Shown here: positions 18,748-58,953 of the stretch, in pieces
How the letters are laid out: every line of letters begins with the position of its first letter
Position numbering within the stretch: the stretch's first letter is position 1
Virus record (IMG/VR): IMGVR_UViG_3300046096_000174
Coordinates: 8,024 to 72,023 of that record
Source of the DNA: a virus
Lineage: Duplodnaviria; Heunggongvirae; Uroviricota; Caudoviricetes
DNA length: 64,000 nt
Direction: 5' to 3' (one strand)
The notes under the pieces: model-generated
The model's input: only the letters and a program-made list of their open reading frames with translations
Database searches by the model: none
Told to the model about the DNA's origin: nothing
Position numbers and translations under genes: made by a program

Positions 18748-19218
18748 TCATTGCTCCATTGTACCAAGAAATTTGAAGTTCTCAACAACTACTTGCAATT
18801 TAAACAAATAATTTCTACTGTAAGAACCTACATCACCTCCTACTACAATACGATGATACATTTTATCAGCAATCATATCCTTCAACAAATAAGTCTTAAT
18901 GATATAAGCACCGATTGTACCATCTGGTTTATGAATCTTGTACAGGTAGTAGTCAGCTTTTGAAATTGCTATTCCAGAAGCACGACCCCAACTTTCATAT
19001 TCTACACCAATATTGCCAGTTCTTGCACAACTAAAATCTTCTTTGATTTCAATCGTTACCTCACGCCCTTTAGGAAAACGCATACGTAAATCATAGTCTG
19101 AGTTATTACACTCATCTACAAAAGCGAGTCCATGCTTTTCAGCTAGGAAGCTTGCTATTTGCTTTTCAGTTTTACGTGCTATCTTAAAGTCGGTAGCAAA
19201 GTCGTAATTAGGCTGCAT
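18748..19218 (-). CDS. Hypothetical protein (possible PD-(D/E)xK-like D...EIK motif)
   Basis: DYDLRM...VTIEIKED pattern only; weak. Confidence 0.3.
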   Translation of the reverse strand: MQPNYDFATDFKIARKTEKQIASFLAEKHGLAFVDECNNSDYDLRMRFPKGREVTIEIKEDFSCARTGNIGVEYESWGRASGIAISKADYYLYKIHKPDGTIGAYIIKTYLLKDMIADKMYHRIVVGGDVGSYSRNYLFKLQVVVENFKFLGTMEQ

Positions 19219-20938: not shown

Positions 20939-20948
20939 TTAAACTCCT

Positions 20949-21749
20949 TTAAATTACTGTCACAGAATCTGCAACAGATTGGTTCATGTTGTTGTGTACG
21001 TAGATTGTAGCATAGAGTTTCAACAATTCATCCGTACCTTTAGAAAAAATTCCGTGGGTTACGTAAAGATTGAGAGATGTAATATTTGGCTGTGTTCGCT
21101 TTAGCATTTCAGCCAAGGACAAGAACGTGGCTCCACCATCACAGATATCATCAACTACGCATACGTTTCCACAGATTGTATCATAAGATTCGTCAACATA
21201 GACTACTTGACCATCTTTACGAACCTTTAGCAGTGTGTGGCAAGGCGTACCTAAGCTAACCTGATAGTGTGTCAGAACCTTATCAGCTGCGCCCTTATCT
21301 GGTGCAATCAATACATCAAATTTAGGTAAGTACTTTGCACAAGATGCTTGTGTCATGTGCTTCAACTGCATACCATAAGAGGCTAAAACATGTGCAGTAA
21401 CCTCACTGTGAACATCCTTCACATAGATGTTGTTGTAGTGCGGGAATGCTTTAAGCATGTGACCGAAGACCCGCAAGGCAAAACTCTCACCTTCATGGCA
21501 TACACGGTCTTGACGACCATAAGGTACGTAGGGAATATGCAAGTCGATTTTCTCACGGGGTACACCTTGCTGATAGAGGGCATCCAGCATGTTAAACGTC
21601 ATGAAAATTTCATCAGAAGAAGGCATGGTCATAATGATATCAACCTTCTCGTGAAGTTCAACCAGTGGTAATTTAATACCAACTTCACCAGCTGGAAATT
21701 TCCATTGCTGAAAACTAGTTGGTTTTCCGTTCAAGCGTAATTCTAACAT
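20949..21749 (-). CDS. Ribose-phosphate pyrophosphokinase (Prs)-family protein (candidate Adps of a NARP1-type pathway)
   Basis: PRPP-binding loop VVDDICDGGATF and a Prs-like N-terminal domain. Lies immediately upstream of the NAMPT-like gene. Confidence 0.65.
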   Translation of the reverse strand: MLELRLNGKPTSFQQWKFPAGEVGIKLPLVELHEKVDIIMTMPSSDEIFMTFNMLDALYQQGVPREKIDLHIPYVPYGRQDRVCHEGESFALRVFGHMLKAFPHYNNIYVKDVHSEVTAHVLASYGMQLKHMTQASCAKYLPKFDVLIAPDKGAADKVLTHYQVSLGTPCHTLLKVRKDGQVVYVDESYDTICGNVCVVDDICDGGATFLSLAEMLKRTQPNITSLNLYVTHGIFSKGTDELLKLYATIYVHNNMNQSVADSVTVI

Positions 21750-21927
21750 CTTCGGTTCCTTTCAATAGTTGAGCAACCTTAAGTAGGTCACTCTCTGGCA
21801 TTTGCATGGCATCAAGTATAACACCATTTTTATCTAGTTTCTGCAAACAGAAAAAATCTTTGCTGTAAGCGTAAGTGAAGTCGTTTTGCATTAGTGGCAC
21901 TGACCCCAAGACATACCGGGAATCCAC
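21715..21927 (-). CDS. Hypothetical small protein
   Basis: ORF between the polymerase and the Prs-like gene, overlapping both. Confidence 0.3.
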   Translation of the reverse strand: MDSRYVLGSVPLMQNDFTYAYSKDFFCLQKLDKNGVILDAMQMPESDLLKVAQLLKGTEDVRITLERKTN

Positions 21928-24182
21928 TCAAAGCCTAACTCTACCTTCAACTTAAGCTCTTCCACGGCCTTCTTAATACCAATATCAATGCACTCAACTG
22001 GAGCCGTTTTAAAGCCTACGTAAGGCCCCTTAGAACCATGTCCAATAGCACTAGAGCCTTCGCACAATGCAGCCTTCGCATCCTCTTCTGTCGCAAAGCC
22101 CTTAACCTGCATCAACTGAGGGTGACAAGCCATTTGTTGCTCGTCATGCATGTGAATCAACCACCAGACTTTTACATCTTCCTTTGAGTGCTTGAATGGG
22201 TCACCTAAGATATTACGCTCTTCCATAGCTTCAGCTAAACGAATAGCAGACCACTTAGCAGAGATAGCACCTCCAGATTGGAATAGGACGTTAATAAGGC
22301 TGTGTTTACTGCGAGTTGATAGCAACCTACCATCCAAGCCTTGAATGTACTTCTTACCGCTGTATTCCCATGACTTCTCAACCCTTTCTTTTAACTCCTT
22401 CAGTGCAGGTACAGCTTCCCAATATTCATTGAATAAGCGTTTACCTTCATCTTCGGAGATACCTAACATCTTAGCAAGCTTCTTAGGTTGAGCGCCATAA
22501 ATCGCAGCATAAGAAAATGACTTAGCTGAGTTACGGTCAATACCTAATTTACGAGCGTTAATACTGTGAATATCGTTAGGCTTTTCTGCCACCAAAGCTT
22601 CAGCTAATGCAGGACCATCCGTATATTTCATAACGTAGTGTCCCATAACTCGTGCCTCAAGTGAAGCGAAGTCATAGCCTAGTTGCCACAAGCCTTTACC
22701 TGCACCAAATAGGTTACGCATTTGTTCACCATACAGCGAAGTAACACGAGGCACATTACAAACAATCTTATGGCGATAACGTCCAGTATTAGCTCCTAAA
22801 GTATCTGCAGGAGTAGGAATGCGACCATCTTCACGGACGTTACTCAAGAAGCCAGTTACAGGGTCACCATCATCGTCCAGCACACCACCAGCAATTGAAT
22901 TACGGCGGTGACGATACGTGTAGTAATGCACTACGTCTTTAACGAAGCCAGCCTTCTCCCCTAAGCTAATCAGGTTAGGGCAGATTTCTTTTTCAACACC
23001 TACAGTAAGCTTTGGAGTTGTTGGCAAGTAAATAGGTTTTGAGCCATTGATTTTACCTTGCAGGAAACGCTCTAGGTTTTCCATCTTGCAGCCAAGCATC
23101 TCTAGGCGCAAGTCTTTGAATACTGAGGTTTCAGTTTGAGCTACGTAGCGTTCAATAGCTACTAAGATTTCGTCATAAGTACGAACAGATTTATCCGTCT
23201 TCTTAACAATATCTCGTTCCTTGACTTCTGAAGGTTCCCAACCTAAGGAAATCAGATAGCCTTTAACCACATCAATATCTTCAATATCTGCAACTACGTG
23301 CGTCTTCAATGGTTCTTGAGTAGTGATAGGAAATGTTTTCCCTTCGAGAACAATCGTTCCCTTATCCTCTGATAATACAGCACCAGTTTTCTCACAGAAC
23401 TTAATCAAGTTAGAAGAGATATCACCATTTTTCTTAAAGCGAATCTTTGGCAGTTCAAAAAAGCTTGCAGCTATCTTAGACATGCGTTTCTGAGGCAGCA
23501 TAGGGTCAACTACTACAGCGATATCCTGCATCATCTTATTGAGTTCTACAAGGTTTTGCTCTGCTAGTTTGACATTGAAATCAAAGCCGAACAGTTCTTG
23601 ACGTAAGGTTAAGTCCGTGAGTTTAATCTCAACAGAGTATGAACGGCTCCAATCATGGTCTTCTTGCTCTTCGATAAGCTTGTAGTGAACAGTTTCGTTG
23701 ACACTAGTATCTTGGATACAGTAGTCCAGCATCTCTTGAGAGAAGCGGTCCCACTCTTCAAAATGGGTTTTATGGTTGCCAAGGCGCTTACCCCATGCAT
23801 CAAGGCTGTGTCCACCAAAGCGGTCAGGACTGAGAAGCTTTGACCACAAGAGTGTATCTGTAACCTTGCAAGGCTTACCAAAGACTAGCGAAGGCTTATC
23901 TGGATAACCAATCTGATAGTCAAGCACACCGTACAGCATGAGTACTGGCAAGTCGAAGGCTACGATGTTGTGACCAATTAGCTCAGTGCAATCACGCAGA
24001 ATGTGCTGAAGCTTTTGCTTAGTAATTTCCTCTTTAACCAAAGAAATTACAGCCTTAGTGTCTAAGTTGCGGATAACCACACACCAGACCTTGTAATCAG
24101 GCTTCAGACAGTAAGGCATAGTCGAGTAGTCCAAACCATTCTGTAGTAGGTTGGTACTCTCAATGTCGATAATGAAACGCAT
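21891..24182 (-). CDS. DNA polymerase, family A (T7 gp5-like) with an N-terminal 3'-5' exonuclease
   Basis: Exo I IDIEST and Exo II GHNIVAFDLPVL. Pol motif A YDFASLEARVMGHY, motif B RNSAKSFSYAAIYG and motif C HMHDEQQ. Confidence 0.85.
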   Translation of the reverse strand: MRFIIDIESTNLLQNGLDYSTMPYCLKPDYKVWCVVIRNLDTKAVISLVKEEITKQKLQHILRDCTELIGHNIVAFDLPVLMLYGVLDYQIGYPDKPSLVFGKPCKVTDTLLWSKLLSPDRFGGHSLDAWGKRLGNHKTHFEEWDRFSQEMLDYCIQDTSVNETVHYKLIEEQEDHDWSRSYSVEIKLTDLTLRQELFGFDFNVKLAEQNLVELNKMMQDIAVVVDPMLPQKRMSKIAASFFELPKIRFKKNGDISSNLIKFCEKTGAVLSEDKGTIVLEGKTFPITTQEPLKTHVVADIEDIDVVKGYLISLGWEPSEVKERDIVKKTDKSVRTYDEILVAIERYVAQTETSVFKDLRLEMLGCKMENLERFLQGKINGSKPIYLPTTPKLTVGVEKEICPNLISLGEKAGFVKDVVHYYTYRHRRNSIAGGVLDDDGDPVTGFLSNVREDGRIPTPADTLGANTGRYRHKIVCNVPRVTSLYGEQMRNLFGAGKGLWQLGYDFASLEARVMGHYVMKYTDGPALAEALVAEKPNDIHSINARKLGIDRNSAKSFSYAAIYGAQPKKLAKMLGISEDEGKRLFNEYWEAVPALKELKERVEKSWEYSGKKYIQGLDGRLLSTRSKHSLINVLFQSGGAISAKWSAIRLAEAMEERNILGDPFKHSKEDVKVWWLIHMHDEQQMACHPQLMQVKGFATEEDAKAALCEGSSAIGHGSKGPYVGFKTAPVECIDIGIKKAVEELKLKVELGFEWIPGMSWGQCH

Positions 24183-33005: not shown

Positions 33006-33440
33006 ATGCAACCAGAATTCGAAATCTTGGCTAACCGTATGGGTCTTGGCGAAGAAGAGCGCAGCCTAGCTGAAATCGTTTGGAAACAGTGCGAGAAGAC
33101 TATGACAGGTAAAGGTGGACTTAAGGCCGCATTGTTCGGTGGTGAAGTAGTCAACTTCGAACCTCGCAGCACTGTTATCTTACACAACATTGAAACACTT
33201 ACTCGTGAAGAGATTGATTTCATGGTGTGGTTGAACCGCAACACATTAAACGGTATCGAGGAAATGAAGATGTTTCTCAAACGTAATATTGATTTGGAGT
33301 GGACCCGCGCTAATCCAGATGACCCAATGACGCAAGGTAACTTCGAAATGATGAACAACATGAAAGACATGTCACGTAAACTTAAACGTCAAACAAAGAT
33401 GCTATCATCTATCCAACGTAAACTCAAGAAGGCTCATTAA
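33006..33440 (+). CDS. Hypothetical protein
   Basis: RBS AAAGGAG. ORF. Confidence 0.45.
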   Translation: MQPEFEILANRMGLGEEERSLAEIVWKQCEKTMTGKGGLKAALFGGEVVNFEPRSTVILHNIETLTREEIDFMVWLNRNTLNGIEEMKMFLKRNIDLEWTRANPDDPMTQGNFEMMNNMKDMSRKLKRQTKMLSSIQRKLKKAH

Positions 33441-33787
33441 TGTCTGTTAGGAAACGCTACACTATTGTTGCTACGTGCTTTGACCGTAAAGGTAAGGTAC
33501 TTGGCACTGGTGCAAATAACTACAACAAGTCACATCCTTTGATGCAGCACTTTGCAGTTAAAGCTGGAGAGTCCGATGAAAAGATTTATCAACATGCAGA
33601 GCTAAACGCTGTGCTACAATCTGGACGTAAAGATATCCATAGCATCCTAGTGCAGCGTTTCCACGACAACGGTGATATGGCTATCGCTAAACCGTGCCCA
33701 ACTTGTCAAGCTATGCTGAAAGGTTTTGGTGTTAAGCTTGTGCGTTATACAACTGAAGAAGGAGTTAAAGAATATGAAATTTTATAA
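33440..33787 (+). CDS. Hypothetical protein (CPTCQ Cys pair)
   Basis: ORF coupled by ATGA overlap. Confidence 0.4.
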   Translation: MSVRKRYTIVATCFDRKGKVLGTGANNYNKSHPLMQHFAVKAGESDEKIYQHAELNAVLQSGRKDIHSILVQRFHDNGDMAIAKPCPTCQAMLKGFGVKLVRYTTEEGVKEYEIL

Positions 33788-37753: not shown

Positions 37754-38248
37754 ATGAAACATTTAGAAGGTGATTTGATTGAATTAGCTCGTGCAGGGCA
37801 TTTCAACTATATCGTTCAAGGTTGCAATTGTTTTTGCACTATGGGTAAAGGTATCGCTAAACAAATTAAGAAAGAATTTCCTGCAGCTTATGCAGCCGAT
37901 TGCTTGACTTTCTATGGTGACCGTGCTAAACTCGGTACATACAGTATTATGTATGGCCCTATCACCGTTATCAATGCATACACTCAGTATGATTTTGCTA
38001 AAGGCTACGATGGTACTGGTGATTACTTCGAGTACGAAGCATTCCAAAAAGTCCTAGACCGTTTGGTTAAAGACCACGGTCACCGTGACTTCGGTTTTCC
38101 CTACATTGGTATGGGACTAGCTGGAGGTGATAGTAAACGCATTCTAGGTATGCTACAAGGCTTTGCAGATGCTGTTAAGCTTAAGGGAGGGTCAGTAACA
38201 TTAGTGAAGTACCCTATGAATAGAATTTTACGAAAGGAAACAGCTTGA
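37754..38248 (+). CDS. Macro domain protein (ADP-ribose / ADPR-1''-phosphate processing family)
   Basis: Macro signatures IVQGCNCFCTMGKGIA and GFPYIGMGLAGGD. Confidence 0.6.
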   Translation: MKHLEGDLIELARAGHFNYIVQGCNCFCTMGKGIAKQIKKEFPAAYAADCLTFYGDRAKLGTYSIMYGPITVINAYTQYDFAKGYDGTGDYFEYEAFQKVLDRLVKDHGHRDFGFPYIGMGLAGGDSKRILGMLQGFADAVKLKGGSVTLVKYPMNRILRKETA

Positions 38249-39144
38249 TTTCAGCTAAAATTATTGCCGACAGTTTTAACCCAACTTTCGATGCACGTAT
38301 TACAACTTTCGAATTGGTATACCCACGATTTATTCACGGTGAGTTAATGACCCACCGAGTATTCAGCCGCAATGCTGCAAGTTCTCGTGCTATTCCAATC
38401 GATAAGGTTATTGAGCTAGTCGAAGCAACTCCAGCTATGCCTGTGCATTGGGGTGCTAACCAAGCAGGTATGCAAGCCAAAGAAGAAGTCGTAGGTAAAG
38501 AACTAGCTAAGTTATTATGGCTTAATGCTCGTGATAGTGCCGTAGCTAACGCACGACTATTACAGAAGGCAGGACTGCATAAGCAGATTGTCAACCGTGT
38601 ATTGGAACCATTCCAACTCATTAAAACAATCGTCACTGCTACTCAATGGAATAACTGGTTTTGGTTGCGTGACCATGTGGATGCACAACCAGAGATTGCA
38701 GAATTAGCTGCAGTTATGGCTATTGCTTATGATGCAAGCGCACCAGAATTACTAGTTAATAACGAATGGCATGTACCTTACGTTAAAACATTGGTAAGTC
38801 CCTATCAAGGTCGTATCTATTTAGATGAACTTGATAACTACATTACTGTAGAAGAAGCGCGAATGATTAGTGCCAGCTGTTGCGCTCAGGTTAGCTATCG
38901 TAAGAATGATGGTAGCCTAGAGAAAGCTTCTATGGTATTTGACCGATTAATTAACTCAGTGCCAGTGCATGCTTCACCAGTTGAGCATATCGCTACACCG
39001 ATTCCTTATGAGAGTTTCGCAGGTGATTATTTAGATATTGAAGGTGTAACCCATATCGACAAGAATAATGTCCCACACAGCGGTAATTTTCATGGTTGGA
39101 TTCAATTCCGTCAGTTAATTCCTAACAACGTCAAAGCACTATGA
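38245..39144 (+). CDS. thyX: Flavin-dependent thymidylate synthase
   Basis: ThyX signature RHR-x7-S (MTHRVFSRNAASSRA). Confidence 0.75.
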   Translation: MISAKIIADSFNPTFDARITTFELVYPRFIHGELMTHRVFSRNAASSRAIPIDKVIELVEATPAMPVHWGANQAGMQAKEEVVGKELAKLLWLNARDSAVANARLLQKAGLHKQIVNRVLEPFQLIKTIVTATQWNNWFWLRDHVDAQPEIAELAAVMAIAYDASAPELLVNNEWHVPYVKTLVSPYQGRIYLDELDNYITVEEARMISASCCAQVSYRKNDGSLEKASMVFDRLINSVPVHASPVEHIATPIPYESFAGDYLDIEGVTHIDKNNVPHSGNFHGWIQFRQLIPNNVKAL

Positions 39145-39458
39145 AAAAAGAAAAACCATTAAGTACTAAGGAATTAATACGTATGGTTGCATCCTCTTCC
39201 AAATACCATGTGTACGAGGTGGAGGATGTTCTATCACATGCTATTGCTCACATCCAAGAAGCTGTTTCTAAGGGTAAAAGCGTAAAGCTGAGTGGTATTG
39301 GTACGTTAAGCCGAAAACTTTTTAAGCCAAGGTTTGTAACTTTAGATGGTAGACCTCCAGTTATGGTGTACAATATTGTCGGAATGTCTGTTAAACTAGA
39401 CGACACAATGAAACAACTCCTAAAGGAAAACTATGACAAAACCAGAGCAGACCAATAA
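39141..39458 (+). CDS. HU/IHF-like DNA-binding protein
   Basis: HU-family pattern ...VKLSGIGTLS...R.GR.P.... Confidence 0.5.
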   Translation: MKKEKPLSTKELIRMVASSSKYHVYEVEDVLSHAIAHIQEAVSKGKSVKLSGIGTLSRKLFKPRFVTLDGRPPVMVYNIVGMSVKLDDTMKQLLKENYDKTRADQ

Positions 39459-44861: not shown

Positions 44862-45082
44862 GCCATGAACTAGCAGAAACCGAATGGAAAGGTATGCCTG
44901 AGTTCGTACAAGACAAGCAAGAACCCTATGCTAAGATTATCATTCGCTTTCGCAATCAAGAAGACTTAGACGAGTTTGCTAACCTAGTCGGTCAAAAGCT
45001 TACAGCTAAAACCAAAAGCATGTGGCATCCGTTCTTAGAGCGAGGTATCAACGCGAATAAAAGGTACGTAGATGAATCCTAA
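44858..45082 (+). CDS. Hypothetical protein
   Basis: ORF. Confidence 0.3.
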   Translation: MSHELAETEWKGMPEFVQDKQEPYAKIIIRFRNQEDLDEFANLVGQKLTAKTKSMWHPFLERGINANKRYVDES

Positions 45083-45941
45083 ATATCCTATTTACATTGT
45101 ATCTAAGGGAAGGGCACATACTCGGTTGACTAGCAAGGCGCTAGAACGCATGCAAGTGCCCTACAGCATCGTTGTTGAAGAGCAGGAATACCTAGAGTAC
45201 TCCAAGGTAATTGACCCCTCTAAAATCCTCGTATTACCGCAGAGCTGGTTGGACGAATACGATACGTGTGATGACTTGGGTAATACGCTGAGTAAGGGAC
45301 CGGGAGCAGCGCGGAACTTCTGCTGGTGGCATGCAAAGCACCTAGGGGCTAAACGTCATTGGGTTATGGACGATAACCTAGATGCTTTCCATCGCCTAAA
45401 CCATAACATGAAAGTTGTGGTAGAAACTGGCTCATGTTTTAAAGCAGCCGAGGATTTTGTTGACCGTTATACCAATGTTCCGTTAGCTGGTTTTAACTAC
45501 TACTCGTTTGCGAAAGCTACAGATAAAGTACCACCTTTTATTGCAAATACCCGTATCTACTCTTGTCTCTTGATTGAAAATTCTGCACCGTATTACTGGC
45601 GTGGACGCTACAATGAAGATACGGACTTATCCCTACGGATATTGAAGGATGGATGGTGTACAATTCAATTCAATGCATTCTTGCAGGGTAAGGTAACTAC
45701 GCAGCGCATGCGTGGAGGAAATACCGAAGAGTTCTATCGTCACGAAGGCACTAAGAACAAATCACAGATGCTGGTGGACTTACATCCAGATGTAACCGAG
45801 CTGGTATGGAAGTTCAACCGTTGGCATCATCATGTTGATTACAGGCCATTCAAAAATAATCTGTTGATTAAACGCGAAAGTCTAGAAATCTCTGATACAA
45901 TCGACAACTACGGAATGAAACTAATTGAAAGGACAAGATAA
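45072..45941 (+). CDS. Hypothetical protein with a DxD-like motif (possible nucleotide-sugar/glycosyltransferase-like fold)
   Basis: IYIVSKGRA...HWVMDDNLDAF (DxD). Weak; no family assignment possible by eye. Confidence 0.35.
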   Translation: MNPKYPIYIVSKGRAHTRLTSKALERMQVPYSIVVEEQEYLEYSKVIDPSKILVLPQSWLDEYDTCDDLGNTLSKGPGAARNFCWWHAKHLGAKRHWVMDDNLDAFHRLNHNMKVVVETGSCFKAAEDFVDRYTNVPLAGFNYYSFAKATDKVPPFIANTRIYSCLLIENSAPYYWRGRYNEDTDLSLRILKDGWCTIQFNAFLQGKVTTQRMRGGNTEEFYRHEGTKNKSQMLVDLHPDVTELVWKFNRWHHHVDYRPFKNNLLIKRESLEISDTIDNYGMKLIERTR

Positions 45942-49548: not shown

Positions 49549-49552
49549 AATC

Positions 49553-50265
49553 CAAAAACCTACTTGGGTTCTACTGGACTGAAAAGCCGCGAAGGGTTTA
49601 AAAATCCGCGATAGGTTTGAAATCTAAAAAGTACCCAAAAACCTACGCCCCCTTTGGTGAACAAAAACAACTGGCATTTTCCCTCGCGGGGCGATGCTTC
49701 GCAAAATGCGAAGATTTATCAGAATCATAAGCTTCTCGATTTGATATGGCACGGACTTTGCTAATAGCAAGAAGCATGCCAACCAGAAAACCAAGCAAGA
49801 ATTGTGCCAGCTGGATGCAAGCAAATATCATGCCAATAATACCCGACCAGCATCAGGGGTTATTACGTGGCGCGGTTTTTGCTAATAGCAGGAAGCATGC
49901 CAGCAGGGGCAAGGGCAAGAAACGTGCCAGCCAACTTTACACAGGACCGATTTAAACGCCCCACAAGGCCCCGAAGCCATGCCAAGCCACTACCACACCA
50001 GCCGAAGTTATCCACAGCACTAGTGGTACTTATCCACAATTTGAACTCTTATATAAGACTAATAAACTGTGGATAACTTTTTGACGTATTGGAAACAAAG
50101 GTATTCAGGGGCAACCATTCAGGAAACAAAAGTTAACATTCTGGCCATCATAGGTTTTGACTATAGACCCGATTAAAAATATTAATCACATCCCCGCCGA
50201 TAGCGGGGTTTTTCGCATATACTGGAGGCACTGGAATAAACCAGCAACAGCAACAGGGGCAGAGA
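49553..50265. repeat. Ori-like noncoding region: direct repeats, an inverted repeat, iteron-like ~120-bp duplicated units and a DnaA-box cluster
   Basis: Direct repeats CCAAAAACCTAC (49553, 49634) and GCGAWAGGTTT (x2). Palindrome CTTCGCAAAATGCGAAG (~49698). Duplicated unit TTTGCTAATAGCARGAAGCATGCCARC...GCAAGAANNGTGCCAGC at 49757..49815 and 49878..49932. No credible CDS; the track ORFs here run on both strands as GC-driven artefacts. Confidence 0.5.
50008..50076. promoter_or_regulatory. Three perfect DnaA boxes (TTATCCACA at 50008 and 50030; TGTGGATAA at 50068) flanking an AT-rich 30-bp core
   Basis: Exact matches to the 9-mer DnaA box consensus in both orientations within 70 bp. AT-rich segment aatttgaactcttatataagactaataaac between them. 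Confidence 0.6.
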
Positions 50266-50451
50266 ATGACACAGGACCAAATCAAGAACAGCGCATACAT
50301 GCAAGCGGTACAACAGGCAGGACGCGAAGCCGCCAACAGCGATAAAATGACGCACTACGCAGTGCAAGAAGCCGCCGACAAATACGGCGTACAATACAAT
50401 CAAGTTCGTTTTGCCATGTTCGACATTATCAACAACAAGAAGACAAAATAA
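50266..50451 (+). CDS. Hypothetical protein (GC-rich island gene 1)
   Basis: RBS-like AGGGGCAGAGA before the ATG. GC3-rich codon usage distinct from the rest of the phage. Confidence 0.4.
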   Translation: MTQDQIKNSAYMQAVQQAGREAANSDKMTHYAVQEAADKYGVQYNQVRFAMFDIINNKKTK

Positions 50452-50524
50452 ATTTTACAGGGTAGCCGATAACGTCAAATTATCGGTTACACTATCAACA
50501 ACAGCAACAAAACAGGGTTTCCAA

Positions 50525-50611
50525 ATGTCCGAATTTTCCGCATATCTCGCCAGCCTCGCAATTGTCCTACTTTTTGTGGGGTTTATTCTGGACCTCGCAA
50601 ACCGCCCATAA
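50525..50611 (+). CDS. 28-aa hydrophobic peptide (island)
   Basis: MSEFSAYLASLAIVLLFVGFILDLANRP. Upstream CAGGGTTTCC. Sub-threshold size. Confidence 0.25.
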   Translation: MSEFSAYLASLAIVLLFVGFILDLANRP

Positions 50612-50770
50612 TTTCGGGTATAATTTCAGCACCAACAACCGAAAGCCTGAACCATGAAAACCAAGCAAACCGCCGCCGATTATCTCGCCGCCTTATGTAT
50701 AGCCGCCGCCTTATGCGTGGGCGCGTTGGCATACTTTGATTGTCTCACCAAGTAAACAAGGGCCAACACC

Positions 50771-50956
50771 ATGACCAAATCAGAAGCCAAAGAACTGACT
50801 AAAATCAAACTATTTCACCAAATGGGCCACCACGACACCGCCGCCCGAAGCCTAAGCGCCTTGATTAGAGCCACCAGAACCACCGCCAACAAGGCCGACA
50901 TGATAAAGACAGCCGAAGCCCTCAAACTTACCGCAAACCCTGATTTTATCGTATAG
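50771..50956 (+). CDS. Hypothetical protein (island)
   Basis: ORF. Confidence 0.35.
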   Translation: MTKSEAKELTKIKLFHQMGHHDTAARSLSALIRATRTTANKADMIKTAEALKLTANPDFIV

Positions 50957-51038
50957 AATACCAGCTTATGCCCTACAGGTTAGCCCCTGAGAGCATAGGC
51001 GGGAATTTTCCCGATAACGTCAAACAGGATAGACCACC

Positions 51039-51320
51039 ATGACAAACGCAAACCAAGCCACCACCGTGACCACCGAAGCACCACGCGCCAACGCTGGACA
51101 CTTTACCAAAACGCGTATTTTCTCGCAGTTCGACCAGCTGGACCACCTGAAGGCGGGGCAATGGGTGCAGACCGATACAGGGGCGCGGGGCCAGTACTTA
51201 GGCAAGACAGAGCAAGGGGCGCAGGTTATCAACTGGGTTAAAAATGGAAAGTTCGACACCAAAATGGCATTGTCTAATTCTCCCCTCCGCAAGTTCGCCA
51301 AGATTAACGGCAGCAAATAA
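51039..51320 (+). CDS. Hypothetical protein (island)
   Basis: ORF. Confidence 0.35.
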   Translation: MTNANQATTVTTEAPRANAGHFTKTRIFSQFDQLDHLKAGQWVQTDTGARGQYLGKTEQGAQVINWVKNGKFDTKMALSNSPLRKFAKINGSK

Positions 51321-51330
51321 GGGGCACGAC

Positions 51331-51519
51331 ATGGACCGCATCACCTTGACCATCCACGAAAACGGCAGCGCAACAGCGCGGGGCATTTTCACCGACAGCC
51401 GCGACAACCGCGCCAGCATGAACCGCACGTATGCAACAGAGCAACAGGCGCGGCAAGAATTCCACGACATGCGAGAGCGCGGGGCCGAATTCTCTTACAC
51501 TATCAACCGCAAGGCATAA
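51331..51519 (+). CDS. Hypothetical protein (island; start at Met30 of the track ORF)
   Basis: AAGGGG RBS before the ATG at 51331. Confidence 0.35.
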   Translation: MDRITLTIHENGSATARGIFTDSRDNRASMNRTYATEQQARQEFHDMRERGAEFSYTINRKA

Positions 51520-51600
51520 AACGCCAAGCAAGGCCCCGAAGCTTTACCGCCTAGGGGTTAGCCTACCAACCGACAAACAACAGCCACAAAGGGGCCTAAA

Positions 51601-51969
51601 ATGTCAGCTTTTATCGTGTCAGACCTTCACACCTTCACAATCGCCAGCTTCGCAGCTGGACGCCTTCGCCTAGGCTCGCATTTTGACCGCGACCAGTTAG
51701 CCCAAAGCCTCGCCAACAGCTTAAAGCGTGTTAACGTGGAAAGCGTCAATTTTCGCTATGCAGAGAAGACACCGCGCACCAAGTGCAAGGCCCAAGCCGT
51801 GACCATCACCGACCCCGCGCAGGTTTACCGCCTCGCCCGATGCTGGATATATCAGGCATGCGAGAACCAGCAAAACGCCGATTTTCACGCCCTGAGCGCC
51901 TTATTAGAGGCAGCATTCACACAGGACGAAAAACGCCAGAGCGACAACGTGGAAATCTGGACAATTTAA
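51601..51969 (+). CDS. Hypothetical protein (island)
   Basis: RBS AAAGGGG. ORF. Confidence 0.4.
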   Translation: MSAFIVSDLHTFTIASFAAGRLRLGSHFDRDQLAQSLANSLKRVNVESVNFRYAEKTPRTKCKAQAVTITDPAQVYRLARCWIYQACENQQNADFHALSALLEAAFTQDEKRQSDNVEIWTI

Positions 51970-51981
51970 ACAGGGGCTAAC

Positions 51982-52881
51982 ATGCACAACACACCAGAAC
52001 AAAACGCAGCATTTAGGGCAGCTTGGGACGCTACCAACGCCCGATATAAAGCCGCCGTAAAAGCCGACCAATTAGCAGCCCAACAAACCAAACCAGAAGC
52101 CGACAGCATGACCACCAGCACCACCCCAAAACGCACCAAGAAGCCACAGAGCGCCATTATTTACAGCGGCCCGAGCTTGATTGATGGAAGCCCGATAGTA
52201 TGCGTGGCAATTGTCACAAGCGGCAATGTGAAGACCGGGAACATGATACAGACCCACATTATCCGCGCCGATATCTCACCACTAGAGGCCAGCAAGACAG
52301 GCGCAGATTTTGCCATATGCGGTAATTGTAAGCACAGGGGCCAAGCCACCACCGACAGCACACGCAAACAGGCACAGGGGCGCACCTGCTACGTGAATCT
52401 TGGACAAGGGCCAAGCCAAGTATTTAAACGCCTTACAGGTACAGGTTACCCCACGGCAACAGCCGAACAGGTTCAAGCCATAGGCCGCGCCCGTATGGTC
52501 AGGCTCGGGACATATGGCGACCCCGCCGCCGTACCTTCGCACATATGGGACCACCTACTAAAAGAAGCCGCAGGGCATACAGGCTACACACACCAGCACG
52601 ACAAAGCGCCCGATTATGCGCGACTGATGCACTCAGCCGACACCAAGGCCGAAGCACTACAGGCACACCGCGCCAACCGCAGGACTTTTCGGGTTATCCC
52701 CGTGGCAGAGTACAACGCACAGGGACCAGCCGCCCTACTTAAGACCGAAATTTTATGCCCCGCAAGTAAAGAAGCAGGGCAGCGGGTAACGTGTGACAAG
52801 TGCAAATTATGCAGCGGCAGCAGCGTACAGGCTAAAAGCGTAGCGATTGTGGCCCACGGAACCAGCAAGGCAGGGGTTTAA
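51982..52881 (+). CDS. Hypothetical Cys-cluster protein, 299 aa (island)
   Basis: RBS CAGGGG. Two Cys clusters (CGNCKHRGQ...C and CDKCKLCSG). No recognisable family. Confidence 0.45.
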   Translation: MHNTPEQNAAFRAAWDATNARYKAAVKADQLAAQQTKPEADSMTTSTTPKRTKKPQSAIIYSGPSLIDGSPIVCVAIVTSGNVKTGNMIQTHIIRADISPLEASKTGADFAICGNCKHRGQATTDSTRKQAQGRTCYVNLGQGPSQVFKRLTGTGYPTATAEQVQAIGRARMVRLGTYGDPAAVPSHIWDHLLKEAAGHTGYTHQHDKAPDYARLMHSADTKAEALQAHRANRRTFRVIPVAEYNAQGPAALLKTEILCPASKEAGQRVTCDKCKLCSGSSVQAKSVAIVAHGTSKAGV

Positions 52882-52883
52882 TT

Positions 52884-53006
52884 ATGCGCGACATTCTTGC
52901 CTTCTTTCTAGCCGCCTACCTTACATTGTGGCTACTATGCGCGGGGCTATATCTCGCAGCATATACCCGCCACTGCATGCACCGCCGAAAGCACCCCACG
53001 GCATAA
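52884..53006 (+). CDS. 40-aa membrane peptide (island)
   Basis: MRDILAFFLAAYLTLWLLCAGLYLAAY.... Sub-threshold size. Confidence 0.25.
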   Translation: MRDILAFFLAAYLTLWLLCAGLYLAAYTRHCMHRRKHPTA

Positions 53007-53018
53007 CCCAAGCACAAA

Positions 53019-53046
53019 CCCCGCCCTAATAAGCGGGGATTTTTTA
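53019..53046 (+). terminator. Rho-independent terminator closing the island operon
   Basis: Stem CCCCGC/GCGGGG with loop cctaataa, followed by ATTTTTT. Confidence 0.65.
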
Positions 53047-53488
53047 CGCCTGAAAGAACCTACAGGGGACCAGCTGCAGGGTATAACCTGAGCAAAAGCA
53101 AAGGCAAAACGCGGGATTGTAGAGGGGAGGATTAGCCAAGCTGCCTAATGAATCAAGCGGGACGCTATACAAGAGGCCTATATTGTCCGATTGTGCATAA
53201 AATCCACGGGTTAAAACCGCCAAGCCTAAACCCTACCGCCTAAAATAAAAATCGACTCGCTACGCTCGTTTAATTACCCTTCGGATATATACTAGAGGGT
53301 TATCTAACCATTGATATCATTGATATTTTAGAATCGTAAGTTATAACCGAGACATAAAGGCGGGGTCCATCAAGCACCTAGGTCATACTGCAGATTTAAA
53401 ACTTTTAAGCATCTAATCCACGAAAATAACCAGCAATTCTATGCATAAAAGTACAAGGTAAAGAACAGCGCATAAACAGTATCAAGCT

Positions 53489-53497
53489 TGTGGATAA
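53489..53497. promoter_or_regulatory. Fourth perfect DnaA box (TGTGGATAA) in the 630-bp noncoding spacer
   Basis: Exact 9-mer, with a weaker TATCCAGA 4 nt downstream. Confidence 0.4.
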
Positions 53498-53679
53498 CAC
53501 TATCCAGATGCCTCTGTAAGGCTCCAAAACGGTCTGTAAGAGCTTGTATTAGCTGCCGAGTACCAATGTAGCCTAAACCTTAATAATGGCTCCTAGAGGC
53601 TTCTATGCAACTAGATATATTAGACGTAAAAAATCCCCAAAGGCTGTTAACCGATGGGGATAAATTTTCTAGATAAATT

Positions 53680-54450
53680 TTATTTTTTATTTTTAGCTTT
53701 TGGAGCTTTAGGCTCTTCTGCTTTTTCTAACTCTTCAACCAAAGCTTCAACCTCTGCACTTGAAAGCTCATCTAACTTCTTCATTAGTGCCTTCTCAGCT
53801 TTCTTCAGCTCGGTTAATTCCTTCTTGTGTCTAGCCTGAATGAGTTCTTCTCTGCGTTGTAGTCTTTCTACAATCTCTTCAGAACTGAACCACATTTCCT
53901 TACCCATGATTACATCGGAAAGTTCTTTCTCGGTTAGGAAGTCCTTGTAAACATCGTGCATTAAACCCTTCACTTGCTTATCTACGAAAGAAGCGTGAGA
54001 GATAACATCGGATTGCTTACCGTAGGCTCCAAACGTAGCAGCATGAATCATCATACTGGCGTAAGGGCTTACACTTACAGAAGGACTTGCCAAAGCAATT
54101 AGACTACCAGCACTAGCGGCAATACCATCGATATGGCAATGCACATTAGCATCTGTATTCTGGATAGAATTGATAAGAGCGATGGCTCCATCTAAGTGTC
54201 CACCATAGGTATTAATACTAAGGTACACAGCGTCACCTTCACCAAGGCTATCAATCGTATGGATTAAATTCCTGTAGTACTTCGCTTCTCGAACACCTTC
54301 ATCAATATATGCTTTGATGCATCGCAGTGTTTGAGTGCTTTGGAAATAAGGCAAATGCTGATTAGCAAGCATAGGGTTAGTAAAATCGTCATCATCGTCA
54401 TCCAGTTTAATATAGATAGGGTTTAAGTCTTCAGTTTTGTTTCTTGGCAT
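53680..54450 (-). CDS. ClpP-family serine protease with a C-terminal coiled-coil/basic extension
   Basis: ClpP motifs GIAASAGSLIALAS (catalytic Ser) and MMIHAATFG (His). RBS AAGGAG. Hairpin terminator on the minus strand at 53625..53660. Confidence 0.65.
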   Translation of the reverse strand: MPRNKTEDLNPIYIKLDDDDDDFTNPMLANQHLPYFQSTQTLRCIKAYIDEGVREAKYYRNLIHTIDSLGEGDAVYLSINTYGGHLDGAIALINSIQNTDANVHCHIDGIAASAGSLIALASPSVSVSPYASMMIHAATFGAYGKQSDVISHASFVDKQVKGLMHDVYKDFLTEKELSDVIMGKEMWFSSEEIVERLQRREELIQARHKKELTELKKAEKALMKKLDELSSAEVEALVEELEKAEEPKAPKAKNKK

Positions 54451-55210
54451 TTGGCTTCTCCTTAGGTTTATCTTGGGTTACAGCAGTACCATTGCCTTCA
54501 GCTACTAACTCGTCTTCAAAAGCAATTACGAACTCTTTGGTTAGACCGCTACGAACTACGTCTTCTCTTCCAAAGGTTGTAAAGCTACAATCATCAATGT
54601 TATATTTATAACAAATCTTCTCTAAGTAGGTAAGACCGTCCATACCTTTCTTTACGTCAGTTTGAGGACCTGTGTTGTCTCCACAGAATACAATCTGAGA
54701 GTTTAAGCCTACACGGGTAGTCAAGGCTTGAATCTCTGGAACATAAAGGTTCTGGCTTTCATCTACGATGATAATGCTATCATTCCAGCTACGACCACGG
54801 ATGGTTTCTAAGCTGCAGATTTCGATAGTTTTATTCTTGAGGTGAATCTCGGTGGTTGCTTTGCCTAGGTAGTCTTCGAAGTAGTCAATCATTTGTTGGT
54901 AGAAGGGGAGTAGCTTCTCTTCCGCTGTGCCGGGGAGAAACCCAATGGACCGACCTGCCAATGGCTGATAAGCTCGGATTAATACTACCTTCTTAATATC
55001 TGCAAAATGCAACTTCTTCGCAGCATGCCATACTGCCAGTAAGGTCTTACCTGTACCTGCACTACCTCTAGCTACAACCAGTGTGTTGTACTTGAGGGCT
55101 TCCAGCAATTCTGACTGCTTTGTATTCATAGGCAATAGAGCAGGGAACTGAGCGCGTTGGAACTTTTCTTTTTGAACCCGTTGGGATGCAACTTTTTGAT
55201 TTCTTTTCAT
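54431..55210 (-). CDS. phoH: PhoH-family ATPase
   Basis: Walker A VARGSAGTGKTLLAV and the PhoH-like C-terminal region. RBS AGGAGG before the ATG at 55210. Confidence 0.7.
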   Translation of the reverse strand: MKRNQKVASQRVQKEKFQRAQFPALLPMNTKQSELLEALKYNTLVVARGSAGTGKTLLAVWHAAKKLHFADIKKVVLIRAYQPLAGRSIGFLPGTAEEKLLPFYQQMIDYFEDYLGKATTEIHLKNKTIEICSLETIRGRSWNDSIIIVDESQNLYVPEIQALTTRVGLNSQIVFCGDNTGPQTDVKKGMDGLTYLEKICYKYNIDDCSFTTFGREDVVRSGLTKEFVIAFEDELVAEGNGTAVTQDKPKEKPNAKKQN

Positions 55211-55285
55211 AGACCTCCTGAAATAAATAAGCCCCATGAAAGCGCAGCTTGAATGCTACGCCCTATTAAGGGGCTGCTACACTAA

Positions 55286-57451: not shown

Positions 57452-57529
57452 AGCAGAGTAGAGAAGTGGTCTATCTCGCTACCCTCATAAGGTAGAAATC
57501 GGCGGTTCGAATCCGTCCTCATGCTTCCA
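57452..57529 (+). tRNA. tRNA-like, anticodon CAU (Met/Ile2) with a poorly paired acceptor stem
   Basis: D-arm GAGA-AGTGGTCTA-TCTC. Anticodon arm CTACC-CTCATAA-GGTAG. T-arm GGCGG-TTCGAAT-CCGTC. Acceptor AGCAGAG vs CTCATGC pairs only 3/7, so it is a possible pseudo-tRNA or the boundaries are off. Confidence 0.4.
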
Positions 57530-57715
57530 GAATTTATTTGCTATTTCCGAATAGCGAATAGCCAGAGCATAAGCCGAAGGCTCGTAGCTTAATCTAACGC
57601 TACTGAGGTTGAATCTGAATCCAAAGGATGAAGAGGATGTAGACACCGAAAGTCAGAAGTCTACTAGTCCTGCATGGAACCTAGTCCTCTGCAGGTACGA
57701 ATATACTCTAGGCTT

Positions 57716-57789
57716 GCCCTGTTAGTTAAGTGGTATAACACCTGTTTTGTAATCAGGTATTGGCAGTTCGATTCTGTCACGGGGCACCA
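57716..57789 (+). tRNA. tRNA-Thr (UGU)
   Basis: Acceptor GCCCTGT/ACGGGGC. D-arm GTTA-AGTGGTA-TAAC. Anticodon loop TTTGTAA. T-arm GGCAG-TTCGATT-CTGTC. Ends with CCA. Confidence 0.7.
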
Positions 57790-57795
57790 AATTTC

Positions 57796-57871
57796 GCGGA
57801 GATAGCTCAGTTGGTAGAGCGTTGTCTTGATAAGGCAAATGTCACTGGTTCAAGCCCAGTTCTCCGTACCA
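57796..57871 (+). tRNA. tRNA-Ile (GAU)
   Basis: GCGGAGA-TA-GCTCAGTTGGTAGAGC-G-TTGTC-TTGATAA-GGCAA...ACTGG-TTCAAGC-CCAGT-TCTCCGT-A-CCA. Confidence 0.75.
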
Positions 57872-57949
57872 ATTTCGAGAAGATTACAAGTATTTGTTCA
57901 TAGCCTGTGTAACCTTTTGGTTTTGTGCTATAATCTTCTCAATTAATTT

Positions 57950-58024
57950 ACTGCATTCGTCTATCGGTTAGGACACTCGGTTTTCATCCGAGCAAGGGGA
58001 GTTCGATTCTCCCATGCAGTACCA
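57950..58024 (+). tRNA. tRNA-Glu (UUC)
   Basis: Acceptor ACTGCAT/ATGCAGT is perfect. Anticodon arm CTCGG-TTTTCAT-CCGAG. T-arm GGGAG-TTCGATT-CTCCC. Ends with CCA. An extended -10 TGcTATAAT lies at 57925..57934 upstream. Confidence 0.75.
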
Positions 58025-58029
58025 AATAT

Positions 58030-58116
58030 GGATTGTTGGCTGAACGGTTAAGGCAGCGGATTGTAAATCCGTCATCCCAAGGGATATTAGTGGTTCGAAT
58101 CCATTGCAATCCACCA
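58030..58116 (+). tRNA. tRNA-Tyr (GUA) with a long variable arm
   Basis: Acceptor GGATTGT/GCAATCC. Anticodon arm GCGGA-TTGTAAA-TCCGT. Variable arm ATCCC-AA-GGGAT. T-arm AGTGG-TTCGAAT-CCATT. Ends with CCA. Confidence 0.7.
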
Positions 58117-58351
58117 AATTTTGTAGTCTTAGTCTGGAACTAGGGTAAAGGGTGTTGCGGAAGCTTAAATGCCGTTAAATATCGAAGCGCAACTTTAATG
58201 AATGTGTGCAGCCTACTATAATTAATAAGTCGGAGTAATTAGCCGAATAGTAAACACCCGCCAGCGAGGTAGCATGGTGGCAATCGCAGGGAATCCAGCG
58301 TGAGTAAAAGGGTGGGGTCAGAGTCCTCAAAAATAATGCTACTCGAAATTT
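58117..58351 (+). other. 235-nt noncoding gap inside the tRNA cluster (possible structured RNA)
   Basis: No plausible CDS; the 72-aa minus-strand track ORF lacks an RBS and context. Several local stems. By analogy, T4/T5 tRNA regions carry small stable RNAs. Confidence 0.25.
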
Positions 58352-58427
58352 TGGCATATAGCTCAGTTGGTAGAGCGTTTGACTGTTAATCAAAATGTCC
58401 GTGGTTCGACCCCACGTATGCCAGCCA
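58352..58427 (+). tRNA. tRNA-Asn (GUU)
   Basis: TGGCATA-TA-GCTCAGTTGGTAGAGC-G-TTTGA-CTGTTAA-TCAAA...CGTGG-TTCGACC-CCACG-TATGCCA-G-CCA. Confidence 0.75.
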
Positions 58428-58432
58428 GTTAA

Positions 58433-58500
58433 GGGTATGATGATTCAGCCTTCCTATTGCAGGAGGTAGCAGGTAGGTTTAATTCCTACGATATCCACCA
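58433..58500 (+). tRNA. Short (68-nt) tRNA-like element with a reduced D-region (possible UUG/Gln-type anticodon hairpin)
   Basis: Acceptor GGGTATG/GATATCC (6/7). T-arm GTAGG-TTTAATT-CCTAC. Ends with CCA. The candidate anticodon hairpin CTTCC-TATTGCA-GGAGG has a non-canonical loop. Confidence 0.3.
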
Positions 58501-58504
58501 CTTC

Positions 58505-58580
58505 GTTCCGATAGCTCAACTAGGCAGAGCAGTGGATTCCAAATCCGAAGGTTGGAGGTTCGATTCCTTCTCGGTTCGCA
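58505..58580 (+). tRNA. tRNA-Trp (CCA)-like with two U-U mismatches in the acceptor stem and a 3' GCA instead of CCA
   Basis: D-arm GCTC-AACTAGGCA-GAGC. Anticodon arm GTGGA-TTCCAAA-TCCGA. T-arm GGAGG-TTCGATT-CCTTC. Acceptor GTTCCGA vs TCGGTTC. Confidence 0.45.
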
Positions 58581-58602
58581 AATATAATATACAGGAGCAT
58601 TT

Positions 58603-58674
58603 ATGAATAATGAAGGTTGGGATGGTATCTCAAATGAAGGCTCAGGATACGCAGAGAAAATTCCTCGTATCTAA
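58603..58674 (+). CDS. 23-codon micro-ORF (MNNEGWDGISNEGSGYAEKIPRI) with a strong RBS, inside the tRNA cluster
   Basis: ACAGGAGCATTT-ATG spacing is ideal. Lies between the tRNA-Trp-like and tRNA-Ser genes. Far below the track threshold. Confidence 0.25.
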   Translation: MNNEGWDGISNEGSGYAEKIPRI

Positions 58675-58682
58675 ATAATCAA

Positions 58683-58772
58683 GGGTGGTTGGCAGAGAGG
58701 CCGATTGCAGAGGGTTGCTAACCCTTAAGCCGCTAACGTGGCTCATAGGTTCAAATCCTATACTACCCGCCA
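58683..58772 (+). tRNA. tRNA-Ser (GCU), long variable arm
   Basis: Acceptor GGGTGGT/ACTACCC. 3-bp D-stem. Anticodon arm GAGGG-TTGCTAA-CCCTT. Variable arm GCCGC-TAAC-GTGGC. T-arm ATAGG-TTCAAAT-CCTAT. Ends with G-CCA. Confidence 0.7.
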
Positions 58773-58777
58773 AATTG

Positions 58778-58865
58778 GGATGGGTGGCAGAGTGGTCGAT
58801 TGCGACAGGCTTGAACCCTGTTGGTCCGAAAGGGTCCGTGAGTTCGAATCTCACCTCATCCTCCA
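58778..58865 (+). tRNA. tRNA-Ser (UGA), long variable arm
   Basis: Acceptor GGATGGG/CTCATCC. Anticodon arm ACAGG-CTTGAAC-CCTGT. Variable arm TGGTCCGAAAGGGTCCGT. T-arm GTGAG-TTCGAAT-CTCAC. Ends with CCA. Confidence 0.7.
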
Positions 58866-58875
58866 AATACAATAT

Positions 58876-58953
58876 CCGTTTTTAGGCTAGTCTGGTTAAG
58901 TCACTTGGTTTGGGGCCAAGATATCGTAGGTTCGAATCCTACAGAACGGACCA
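58876..58953 (+). tRNA. tRNA-Pro (UGG)
   Basis: Acceptor CCGTTTT/AGAACGG. D-arm GGCT-AGTCTGGTTA-AGTC. Anticodon arm CTTGG-TTTGGGG-CCAAG. T-arm GTAGG-TTCGAAT-CCTAC. Ends with A-CCA. Confidence 0.7.

Follow-up and report, generated by a model that had tools for sequence, protein, structure and literature searches.

The window analysed here, a stretch of 64,000 nucleotides from a tailed virus of the Caudoviricetes (positions 8,024 to 72,023 of the IMG/VR record IMGVR_UViG_3300046096_000174), harbours in a long non-coding gap a compact element, hereafter the core, in which three perfect DnaA boxes are grouped around a short palindrome. Judging from sequence comparison, this core is a conserved, non-coding, single-copy and orientation-independent constituent of more than 50 freshwater phage genomes, and the locus is tentatively read as the DnaA-assisted, transcription-coupled replication-start and control region of the phage. 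The element as a whole provides perfect sites for conserved host proteins, namely DnaA, sigma-54 and in some lineages LexA, and is kept nearly base for base across otherwise dissimilar lineages. As far as is known, lytic phages with replisomes of their own initiate replication independently of the host initiator, and descriptions of sigma-54 promoters in phage genomes are all but lacking. If the locus is an origin, it would constitute a portable means by which phages make use of host initiation; as a switch, it would let phages sense the replication and damage state of the host via DnaA and LexA. Two carriers, Limnohabitans phage DC31 and Curvibacter phage P26059A, are in culture, with Limnohabitans DCL3 and Curvibacter IMCC26059 as hosts, which renders the element directly testable either way. 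Both are lytic siphoviruses of Comamonadaceae (PMC5964084, PMC12195039). DnaA is not mentioned in the papers describing them, and the literature on DnaA boxes of lytic phages, on phage use of sigma-54 and on DnaA in conjunction with sigma-54 yielded no comparable element, with the exception of an Ori-Finder prediction in a Pseudomonas phage.

The gap and the constituents of the core, together with a further DnaA box beyond the gap, are as follows.

49549-50265, no strand assigned: the whole non-coding gap between two plus-strand gene blocks (list of open reading frames and sequence)
49948-50079, plus strand: conserved core of ~140 bp (44 aligned non-identical copies; blastn to DC31 and P26059A)
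50008-50016, plus strand: DnaA box 1, TTATCCACA, inside AAGTTATCCACAG (exact match; core alignment)
50030-50038, plus strand: DnaA box 2, TTATCCACA (exact match; core alignment)
50047-50060, no strand assigned: TCTTATATAAGACT, a palindrome of 12-16 bp at the centre of a 30-bp segment of low stability (invariant columns; stability)
50068-50076, minus strand: DnaA box 3, inverted, inside CTGTGGATAACTT (exact match; core alignment)
53489-53497, minus strand: a fourth perfect DnaA box, inside the non-coding gap that follows (53010-53680)

Three exact DnaA 9-mers within 70 bp had been pointed out in an earlier note on this DNA, and they are indeed present, starting at 50008 and 50030 on the plus strand and at 50068 on the minus strand. 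The genome-wide count suggested there as a check gave four exact boxes on both strands of the 64-kb window, as compared with a mean of 0.56 in dinucleotide shuffles, none of 100 of which reached four; three of the four fall within those 70 bp. Boxes with one mismatch occur at chance level genome-wide (23 versus 18 expected), and clustering is therefore confined to perfect boxes. Boxes 1 and 3 are moreover embedded in a perfect 13-nt inverted repeat, AAGTTATCCACAG and CTGTGGATAACTT. The DnaA boxes are well in excess of chance and under strong selection, since more than 50 phage contigs retain an identical arrangement of boxes although their flanks can no longer be aligned.

Read from left to right, the core comprises CGATTTAAACG, ~45 nt, box 1 (consensus AAGTTATCCACA), 13 nt, box 2 (TTATCCACA), 8 nt, TCTTATATAAGACT, 7 nt including flanks, and the inverted box 3 (consensus TGTGGATAA). 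In the alignment of 44 copies the DnaA boxes are nearly invariant and the 14-nt palindromic site TCTTATATAAGACT as well as box 3 are invariant; the scan pattern itself fixed box 3 and ten bases of TCTTATATAAGACT, so only the remaining bases add evidence of invariance. DnaA docking at the core is well supported by this sequence pattern. The 30 bp between boxes 2 and 3 (50038-50067) are 80% A+T and constitute the least stable duplex of the gap, ranking in the top 0.15-0.2% of all 30-bp windows, but only in the top 2.5-5% at the 100-bp scale. An AT-rich core between the boxes exists as described in the earlier note, but its designation as resembling a DNA unwinding element (DUE) finds little support in a segment that is short and of which 14 bases (TCTTATATAAGACT) are invariant in 44 sequences. 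Such invariance is the pattern of a protein-binding site rather than that of an unwinding element defined by composition only, and TCTTATATAAGACT is presumed to serve as a protein-binding or bending site. By eye, no match to the IHF-site pattern WATCAANNNNTTR was found in the core centre, nor any convincing IHF, Fis, NtrC or NrdR consensus in the core.

The core was traced well beyond the window. A sensitive blastn search with 1.2 kb around the site returned matches only to window positions 49982-50080, in DC31 and P26059A, where the core lies in long unannotated gaps and is present once per genome. Pattern scans of IMG/VR gave 12 and then 49 contigs carrying it, and no blastn match to the core region was obtained among 72,556 plasmids. 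A scan of 185,579 bacterial genomes with a pattern of palindrome and box 3 produced one match, on a phage-like 7.5-kb contig of a metagenome-assembled genome (MAG), and on this one pattern a copy of a host oriC was rejected. This contig (L015, CAZLJI010000109.1), binned as an Ignavibacteriaceae MAG, bears the core along with genes of the window's phage group and is probably a mis-binned phage fragment.

With respect to conserved neighbour genes, the core faces one way in the window, in P26059A and in contigs L014 and L005, and the opposite way in DC31 and in contigs L003, L004, L011, L012, L013 and L015; occurrence in both orientations fits an origin and not a dedicated gene promoter. Its position is syntenic in related phages. 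In a further set of carriers, termed lineage 2, the core resides in a non-coding region of ~1 kb, ~800 bp upstream of terS and a terL of 418 aa. The terL families differ between the carriers (phrog_979 in the window, phrog_2 in lineage 2), and P26059A is reported to possess a family B polymerase (PMC5964084), whereas the window phage has Pol A. A core common to lineages with different terminases and polymerases fits an element that needs only host factors. When the open reading frames (ORFs) located no more than 5 kb from the core were clustered over the loci compared, no gene emerged as a universal neighbour; lineage 2 terS and terL were the most frequent, at 19-22 loci. A cos or pac site, considered for the lineage 2 core because of its proximity to terS, was rejected: in the window, 11 kb separate the core from terL, and perfect DnaA boxes make up the sites.

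Upstream of the core, the earlier note had recognized a duplicated, iteron-like unit. The duplication does exist (49747-49781 and 49868-49902, 89% identical, 121 bp apart), but its units are not of the Rep type: an iteron array comprises at least three direct iterons of 17-22 bp bound by the Rep protein of the replicon, which is not what is found here. Instead, the units consist of -24/-12 elements of the sigma-54 promoter type, mostly on the minus strand.

49747-49761, plus strand: sigma-54-type -24/-12 element TGGCACGGACTTTGC, facing the next element (strict pattern)
49767-49781, minus strand: sigma-54-type element TGGCATGCTTCTTGC (strict pattern)
49795-49809, minus strand: sigma-54-type element TGGCACAATTCTTGC (strict pattern)
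49821-49835, minus strand: sigma-54-type element TGGCATGATATTTGC (strict pattern)
49868-49882, plus strand: sigma-54-type element TGGCGCGGTTTTTGC (looser pattern)
49888-49902, minus strand: sigma-54-type element TGGCATGCTTCCTGC (looser pattern)
49915-49929, minus strand: sigma-54-type element TGGCACGTTTCTTGC, nearest to the core and ~80 bp from box 1 (strict pattern)

These five strict and two looser elements (49747-49929) are spaced 26-28 bp apart and form two face-to-face pairs; the motif GCAAGAANNGTGCCAGC is the reverse complement of TGGCAC-N5-TTGC, the pattern with GG at -24 and GC at -12 in fixed spacing. Strict matches number seven in the window, as compared with 0.34 expected. Throughout 528 kb of compared loci, 52 of 58 sigma-54-type elements lie within 600 bp of the core, and two positions are conserved, both pointing away from it: +31, which abuts box 3, and -130 to -166. 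Arrays of 5-8 elements occur in the window and in its closest relatives, L014 and L052. The consensus of 47 elements, TGGCAtG-N4-TTGCT, equals that of sigma-54 (TGGCAYG-N4-TTGCT architecture), and GG, TGCCA and TTGC are kept while the spacers vary, both between the window, L014 and L052 and across the 47 elements. Selection acting on the important promoter positions only has served as a criterion for such promoters (PMC4591121), and recognition of the elements by sigma-54 is likely. Elsewhere in the window, a sigma-54-type element occurs at 14498 on the plus strand, antisense within a gene, and another (TGGCACAAGTCTTGC) forms the spacer of a perfect sigma-70 promoter (TTGACA-17 nt-TATAAT; 16197-16241, minus strand) upstream of the gene at 15490-16110.

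The favoured reading as replication-start and control region would operate as follows. Host DnaA would fill the three boxes, while a bending protein, either host IHF/HU or an HU/IHF-like protein of the phage, would bind or bend the central palindrome, and the complex of DnaA and bender would destabilise the 30-bp centre. Host RNA polymerase at the outward-facing promoters, which are of the sigma-54 type in the window and of other types in other lineages, would supply negative supercoiling and possibly an RNA primer, whereupon the T7-type primase-helicase of the phage would load itself onto the opened DNA. Firing would be gated by sensors of the host state, namely DnaA and, in some relatives, LexA. 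The T7-type primase-helicase and Pol A mentioned in the earlier note are both present in the phage. In line with the proposed opening, both box sets point toward the central segment, the least stable DNA of the gap, under the orientation rule of the basal unwinding system (BUS; PMC8287927).

The bending protein has a candidate of its own in the window.

39141-39458, plus strand: HU/IHF-family DNA-bending protein (Pfam Bac_DNA_binding, 1.6e-7)

Its tblastn search against 50,697 phage records found only DC31 and P26059A, both of which carry the core, and the gene is syntenic directly after ThyX in all three phages; homologues in IMG/VR are located on core-bearing contigs. It is a candidate partner of the core and its palindrome, though shared ancestry of the clade alone may explain the co-occurrence. 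At oriC, datA and DARS2, DnaA typically acts together with IHF (PMC5742627), and the IHF/HU-like protein of the phage clade counts in favour of an origin. Another small ORF of the window gave a GapR-like DNA-binding match.

Further components lie beside the core in individual lineages. Loci of the DC31 type exhibit AT-rich 16-bp tandem repeats (x3.4 to x7.8) next to the core, which contain its CTTATATAAG motif, as well as 20-bp repeats (x4.6) and up to four extra DnaA boxes; together, extra boxes and both repeat types make up the classical origin triad. At DC31-type loci and at some of lineage 2, DnaA boxes at +53, +71 and +82 come after the +31 promoter, while in nine other loci (L020, L027, L030, L032, L034, L037, L041, L046 and L050) a LexA-type box (ACTGT-N8-ACAGT) is placed at exactly +51, over the predicted start. 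LexA-type boxes on the left side of the core were observed in L016, L036, L040 and L047. Altogether, 15 such boxes occur within 300 bp of the core, versus four in 496 kb elsewhere. A different arrangement is seen in L009, L017, L018 and L024, which are devoid of a sigma-54 element and feature a sigma-70 promoter (TTGACC-17-TATAAT) with ACCCAGTGGGT palindromic operators; the core of P26059A also comes without a sigma-54 element. Persistence of the core without sigma-54 elements in several lineages indicates that it has a role of its own.

Several observations weigh against an origin. The GC skew, positive to the left of the site and negative to its right, changes in the sense opposite to that at a bidirectional origin, albeit confounded by the compositional island that follows the gap. 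The AT-rich centre extends over only ~30 bp and its invariance exceeds the need of a DUE; moreover, the AT-rich tandem repeats of the relatives were not found in the window. A BUS consists of a box, a spacer of at most 16 bp and at least three DnaA-trios (PMC8287927). In the window, box 3 is adjoined by four NAN trios and a further five separate boxes 1 and 2, a pattern that is permissive in A+T-rich DNA, whereas in the DC31-type sequence the run beside box 3 breaks down and that between boxes 1 and 2 is interrupted; on our reading of the sequences against PMC8287927, DnaA-trios appear weak and not conserved. With regard to the promoters, those of the sigma-54 type depend on an enhancer-binding ATPase, and no Sigma54_activat match was found among 108 candidate ORFs of the window, a host activator being conceivable. 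Face-to-face and tandem arrays look more like binding arrays than like productive promoters. Finally, LexA or DnaA boxes exactly over the promoter start of relatives argue at least equally for transcription control. The origin reading is nevertheless ranked first because it explains together that the core is autonomous, orientation-independent and single-copy, that it occurs across lineages and that origin-like repeats accompany it in relatives; it is followed by a DnaA/LexA-gated sigma-54 switch and then by a DnaA/sigma-54 decoy. Of the roles proposed in the earlier note, a host-DnaA-using origin and a DnaA-titration site are both conceivable on the sequence pattern.

It is possible, though on balance unlikely, that the locus is a transcription switch only, with the core acting as an enhancer and operator hub for the outward sigma-54 promoters and devoid of origin function. 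DnaA, or LexA elsewhere, would then gate expression by the replication or damage state of the host, or by phage copy number via DnaA titration. The near confinement of sigma-54 elements to the locus, their two fixed outward positions, and the conservation of GG and TTGC positions while spacers drift all speak for such a switch, and so does the placement of the core 80-150 bp upstream of the elements, which is within the usual distance of sigma-54 enhancers. In relatives, box 3 abuts the -24 element of the +31 promoter, whose start is covered either by DnaA boxes or by a LexA box, an exchange that looks like an operator swap. In lineage 2, the promoter faces terS and terL at ~700 bp, reminiscent of the long 5' untranslated regions of sigma-54 mRNAs (PMC4591121). 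On the contrary, the array of the window, L014 and L052 aims at the 3' end of the upstream operon and no conserved ORF lies downstream of the array, although one sigma-54-type promoter does face genes in loci of the DC31 type and of lineage 2; arrays of 5-8 elements at intervals of 26-28 bp, partly in face-to-face arrangement, do not resemble working promoters. Furthermore, P26059A and the L009/L017/L018/L024 type retain the core without any sigma-54 element, and the scanned ORFs lack an enhancer-binding protein. We know of no case in which DnaA activates sigma-54.

Less probable still is a decoy for host factors or a modulator of DnaA, in which amplified phage DNA would titrate DnaA or shift its nucleotide state in the manner of DARS or datA and would also titrate the sigma-54 holoenzyme. 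As a consequence, host initiation would be blocked, DnaA-repressed genes such as nrd derepressed and the sigma-54 regulon silenced. One inverted box opposite two direct ones is the core topology of DnaA-reactivating sequences (DARS; PMC5742627), and box 3 with its flanks (CTGTGGATAAC) equals box II of DARS1; in addition, 5-8 consensus sigma-54 sites with no downstream gene fit a binding array, and an IHF-like protein is available. Yet the spacing differs from that of DARS (29 and 13 bp here, 5 and 3 bp there), the boxes of datA are all in one orientation (PMC5742627), a sink of three boxes per genome is weak, and the exact placement of a single LexA box over a start site speaks for regulation rather than titration.

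A combination of these functions is more doubtful again. DnaA, with the DNA bent by the IHF-like protein of the phage, would melt the centre and open the adjacent sigma-54 closed complexes in place of an enhancer-binding protein, thereby priming or licensing replication; the locus would be a self-contained, horizontally exchangeable host-factor origin whose arrays double as a sink for scarce host sigma-54. If true, opening of sigma-54 complexes by DnaA would represent a DnaA-sigma-54 coupling not known in bacteria.

The iteron-type theta origin of a hitchhiking plasmid-like element, raised as an alternative in the earlier note, is essentially excluded: DnaA boxes do adjoin repeated units, and a 2.7-kb block of distinct composition does follow, beyond which lies another DnaA box, but the repeats are sigma-54-type elements in mixed orientation, the plasmid collection gave no match, the genes of the block keep their synteny in related phages regardless of the direction of the core, and Pfam scans of the 108 candidate ORFs, which in alignment mode list families only and not their members, contained no DnaA, Rep, RpoN, enhancer-binding protein, integrase or partition family.

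The remainder of the gap contains the following features.

49552-49563 and 49635-49646, plus strand: two copies of CCAAAAACCTAC, lineage-specific periphery (49552-49646)
49582-49622, plus strand: 19-bp repeat, x2.2, lineage-specific periphery
49697-49713, plus strand: hairpin palindrome CTTCGCAAAATGCGAAG (read from sequence; not conserved in L014)
50091-50133, plus strand: two direct repeats GGAAACAAAGGT(ATTCAGG), 31 bp apart (100% conserved in L014 and L052)
50192-50213, plus strand: intrinsic-terminator-like hairpin CCCCGCCGATAGCGGGG followed by a T run (kept in L014 and L052)

Compared with L014 and L052, positions 49747-50213 are well kept, while 49549-49746 are not alignable. That the gap is non-coding follows from 1-nt indels between conserved blocks of the relatives (offsets -39/-17, -38/-16 and -37/-16), which rule out a coding region and identify the ORFs listed across it as by-products of DNA conservation. 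Among the short repeats named in the earlier note, both copies of CCAAAAACCTAC are present, and the consensus GCGAWAGGTTT fits the first copy with one mismatch. The CCAAAAACCTAC motif occurs three times in DC31 at the equivalent gene-proximal end of the gap and is absent in L014; two copies alone are not significant, as 10 of 100 shuffles also yield at least two. The palindrome CTTCGCAAAATGCGAAG reported there is likewise in place and is possibly the terminator of the upstream operon. Only weak matches to sigma-70 promoters were found in the gap; TTGACT-17-TATTAA was read by eye at 50157-50185. No Rfam match at E <= 1 to a known RNA family was obtained across 48.5-54 kb.

To the right, a compositional island (50266-53010) displays a GC content of 0.55 versus ~0.40 elsewhere, an AT skew of +0.3 and a negative GC skew. 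Its coding strand is A+C-rich and comprises small ORFs and a 299-aa protein (phrog_2554, weakly DUF7227). The island is shared with L014 (78-80% identity) and partly with L012 and P26059A, while the equivalent region of DC31 has a GC content of ~0.30. It is followed by the second long non-coding gap (53010-53680), which holds, besides the exact box at 53489, two one-mismatch boxes (53192 and 53655); all three are on the minus strand. At both the 30-bp and the 50-bp scale, position 53661 marks the start of the least stable duplex of the whole window.

The window encodes Pol A, a T7-type primase-helicase, ligases, ribonucleotide reductase, NAMPT, the large terminase and a tail fibre, and shares gene content and order, including ClpP, PhoH and small genes, with P26059A and DC31. 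Pol A (21891-24182, minus strand) is 90% identical to that of 'Flumine myo-like phage 1' (OM954188, a 2.5-kb record from river water), the next-best matches being Edwardsiella, Acinetobacter and Cellulophaga phages at ~44%. Auxiliary genes comprise NAMPT with a protein resembling phosphoribosyl pyrophosphate synthetase (19208-21749) as well as a ClpP-like protease with PhoH (53680-55237), a pair whose synteny extends to P26059A and DC31. Ten tRNA genes (Met, Thr, Ile, Glu, Tyr, Asn, Trp, two Ser and Pro; 57452-58953) precede the terminase. The neighbouring small proteins matched only families of unknown function in PHROGs, NCBIfam and Pfam. Modified DNA is suggested by a set of genes at 33440-33787, 38245-39144, 45072-45941 and in other ORFs, which comprises a TET-associated glycosyltransferase, ThyX, dCMP deaminase-like proteins and the N-terminal domain of a dATP/dGTP diphosphohydrolase. 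Modified bases, if present, could affect the binding of DnaA or sigma-54.

Among known systems, sigma-54 (RpoN) promoters with upstream enhancers share the exact TGGCAYG-N4-TTGCT elements and a conserved element 80-150 bp upstream, but differ in that the arrays here are tandem or face to face, no enhancer-binding protein was identified in the window, and the upstream element consists of DnaA boxes. The primary origin of T7, oriF and oriG of T4 and the lambda origin with pR place a promoter beside an easily melted segment, as in the window phage with its T7-type replisome, and in such transcription-activated origins, like here, the regulators of the promoter would gate firing; those origins, however, use phage or sigma-70 promoters and lack a DnaA-box core, whereas the promoters here are of the sigma-54 type and point away. 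P1 oriR, F ori2 and RK2 oriV likewise combine DnaA boxes, repeats and an A+T-rich stretch on extrachromosomal DNA, and the DC31-type relatives carry 16-bp and 20-bp repeats. Unlike these plasmids, the phage has no Rep gene, the repeats of the window are sigma-54 elements, and there is no plasmid similarity.

DARS1 and DARS2 of E. coli possess three boxes, one of them inverted: the core reads > > < and DARS1 > < <, which is an equal topology from the other strand, and box II of DARS1 matches core box 3 over 11-12 nt including flanks. DARS2 depends on IHF, and the tight box spacing is equal in DARS1 and DARS2 (PMC5742627), whereas the core has wider gaps and a palindrome between its convergent boxes. 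At datA, the essential boxes lie in one orientation around an IHF site (PMC5742627), while box 3 of the core is inverted.

In comparison with oriC of E. coli, the core has only three boxes and its 30-bp AT-rich segment lies between and not outside them; it contains neither 13-mer repeats nor a GATC cluster, its flanking promoters are of the sigma-54 type, and it resides on a lytic phage with its own helicase-primase. On the other hand, both feature clustered high-affinity DnaA boxes in the two orientations with a bending-protein site, presumed in the core, among them. The outward-facing promoters of the locus recall the gidA and mioC promoters, which flank the DnaA-box cluster of oriC, and in both cases one of the flanking promoters is overlapped by DnaA boxes and the unwinding site, putative in the core, is situated where the orientation of the boxes predicts it.

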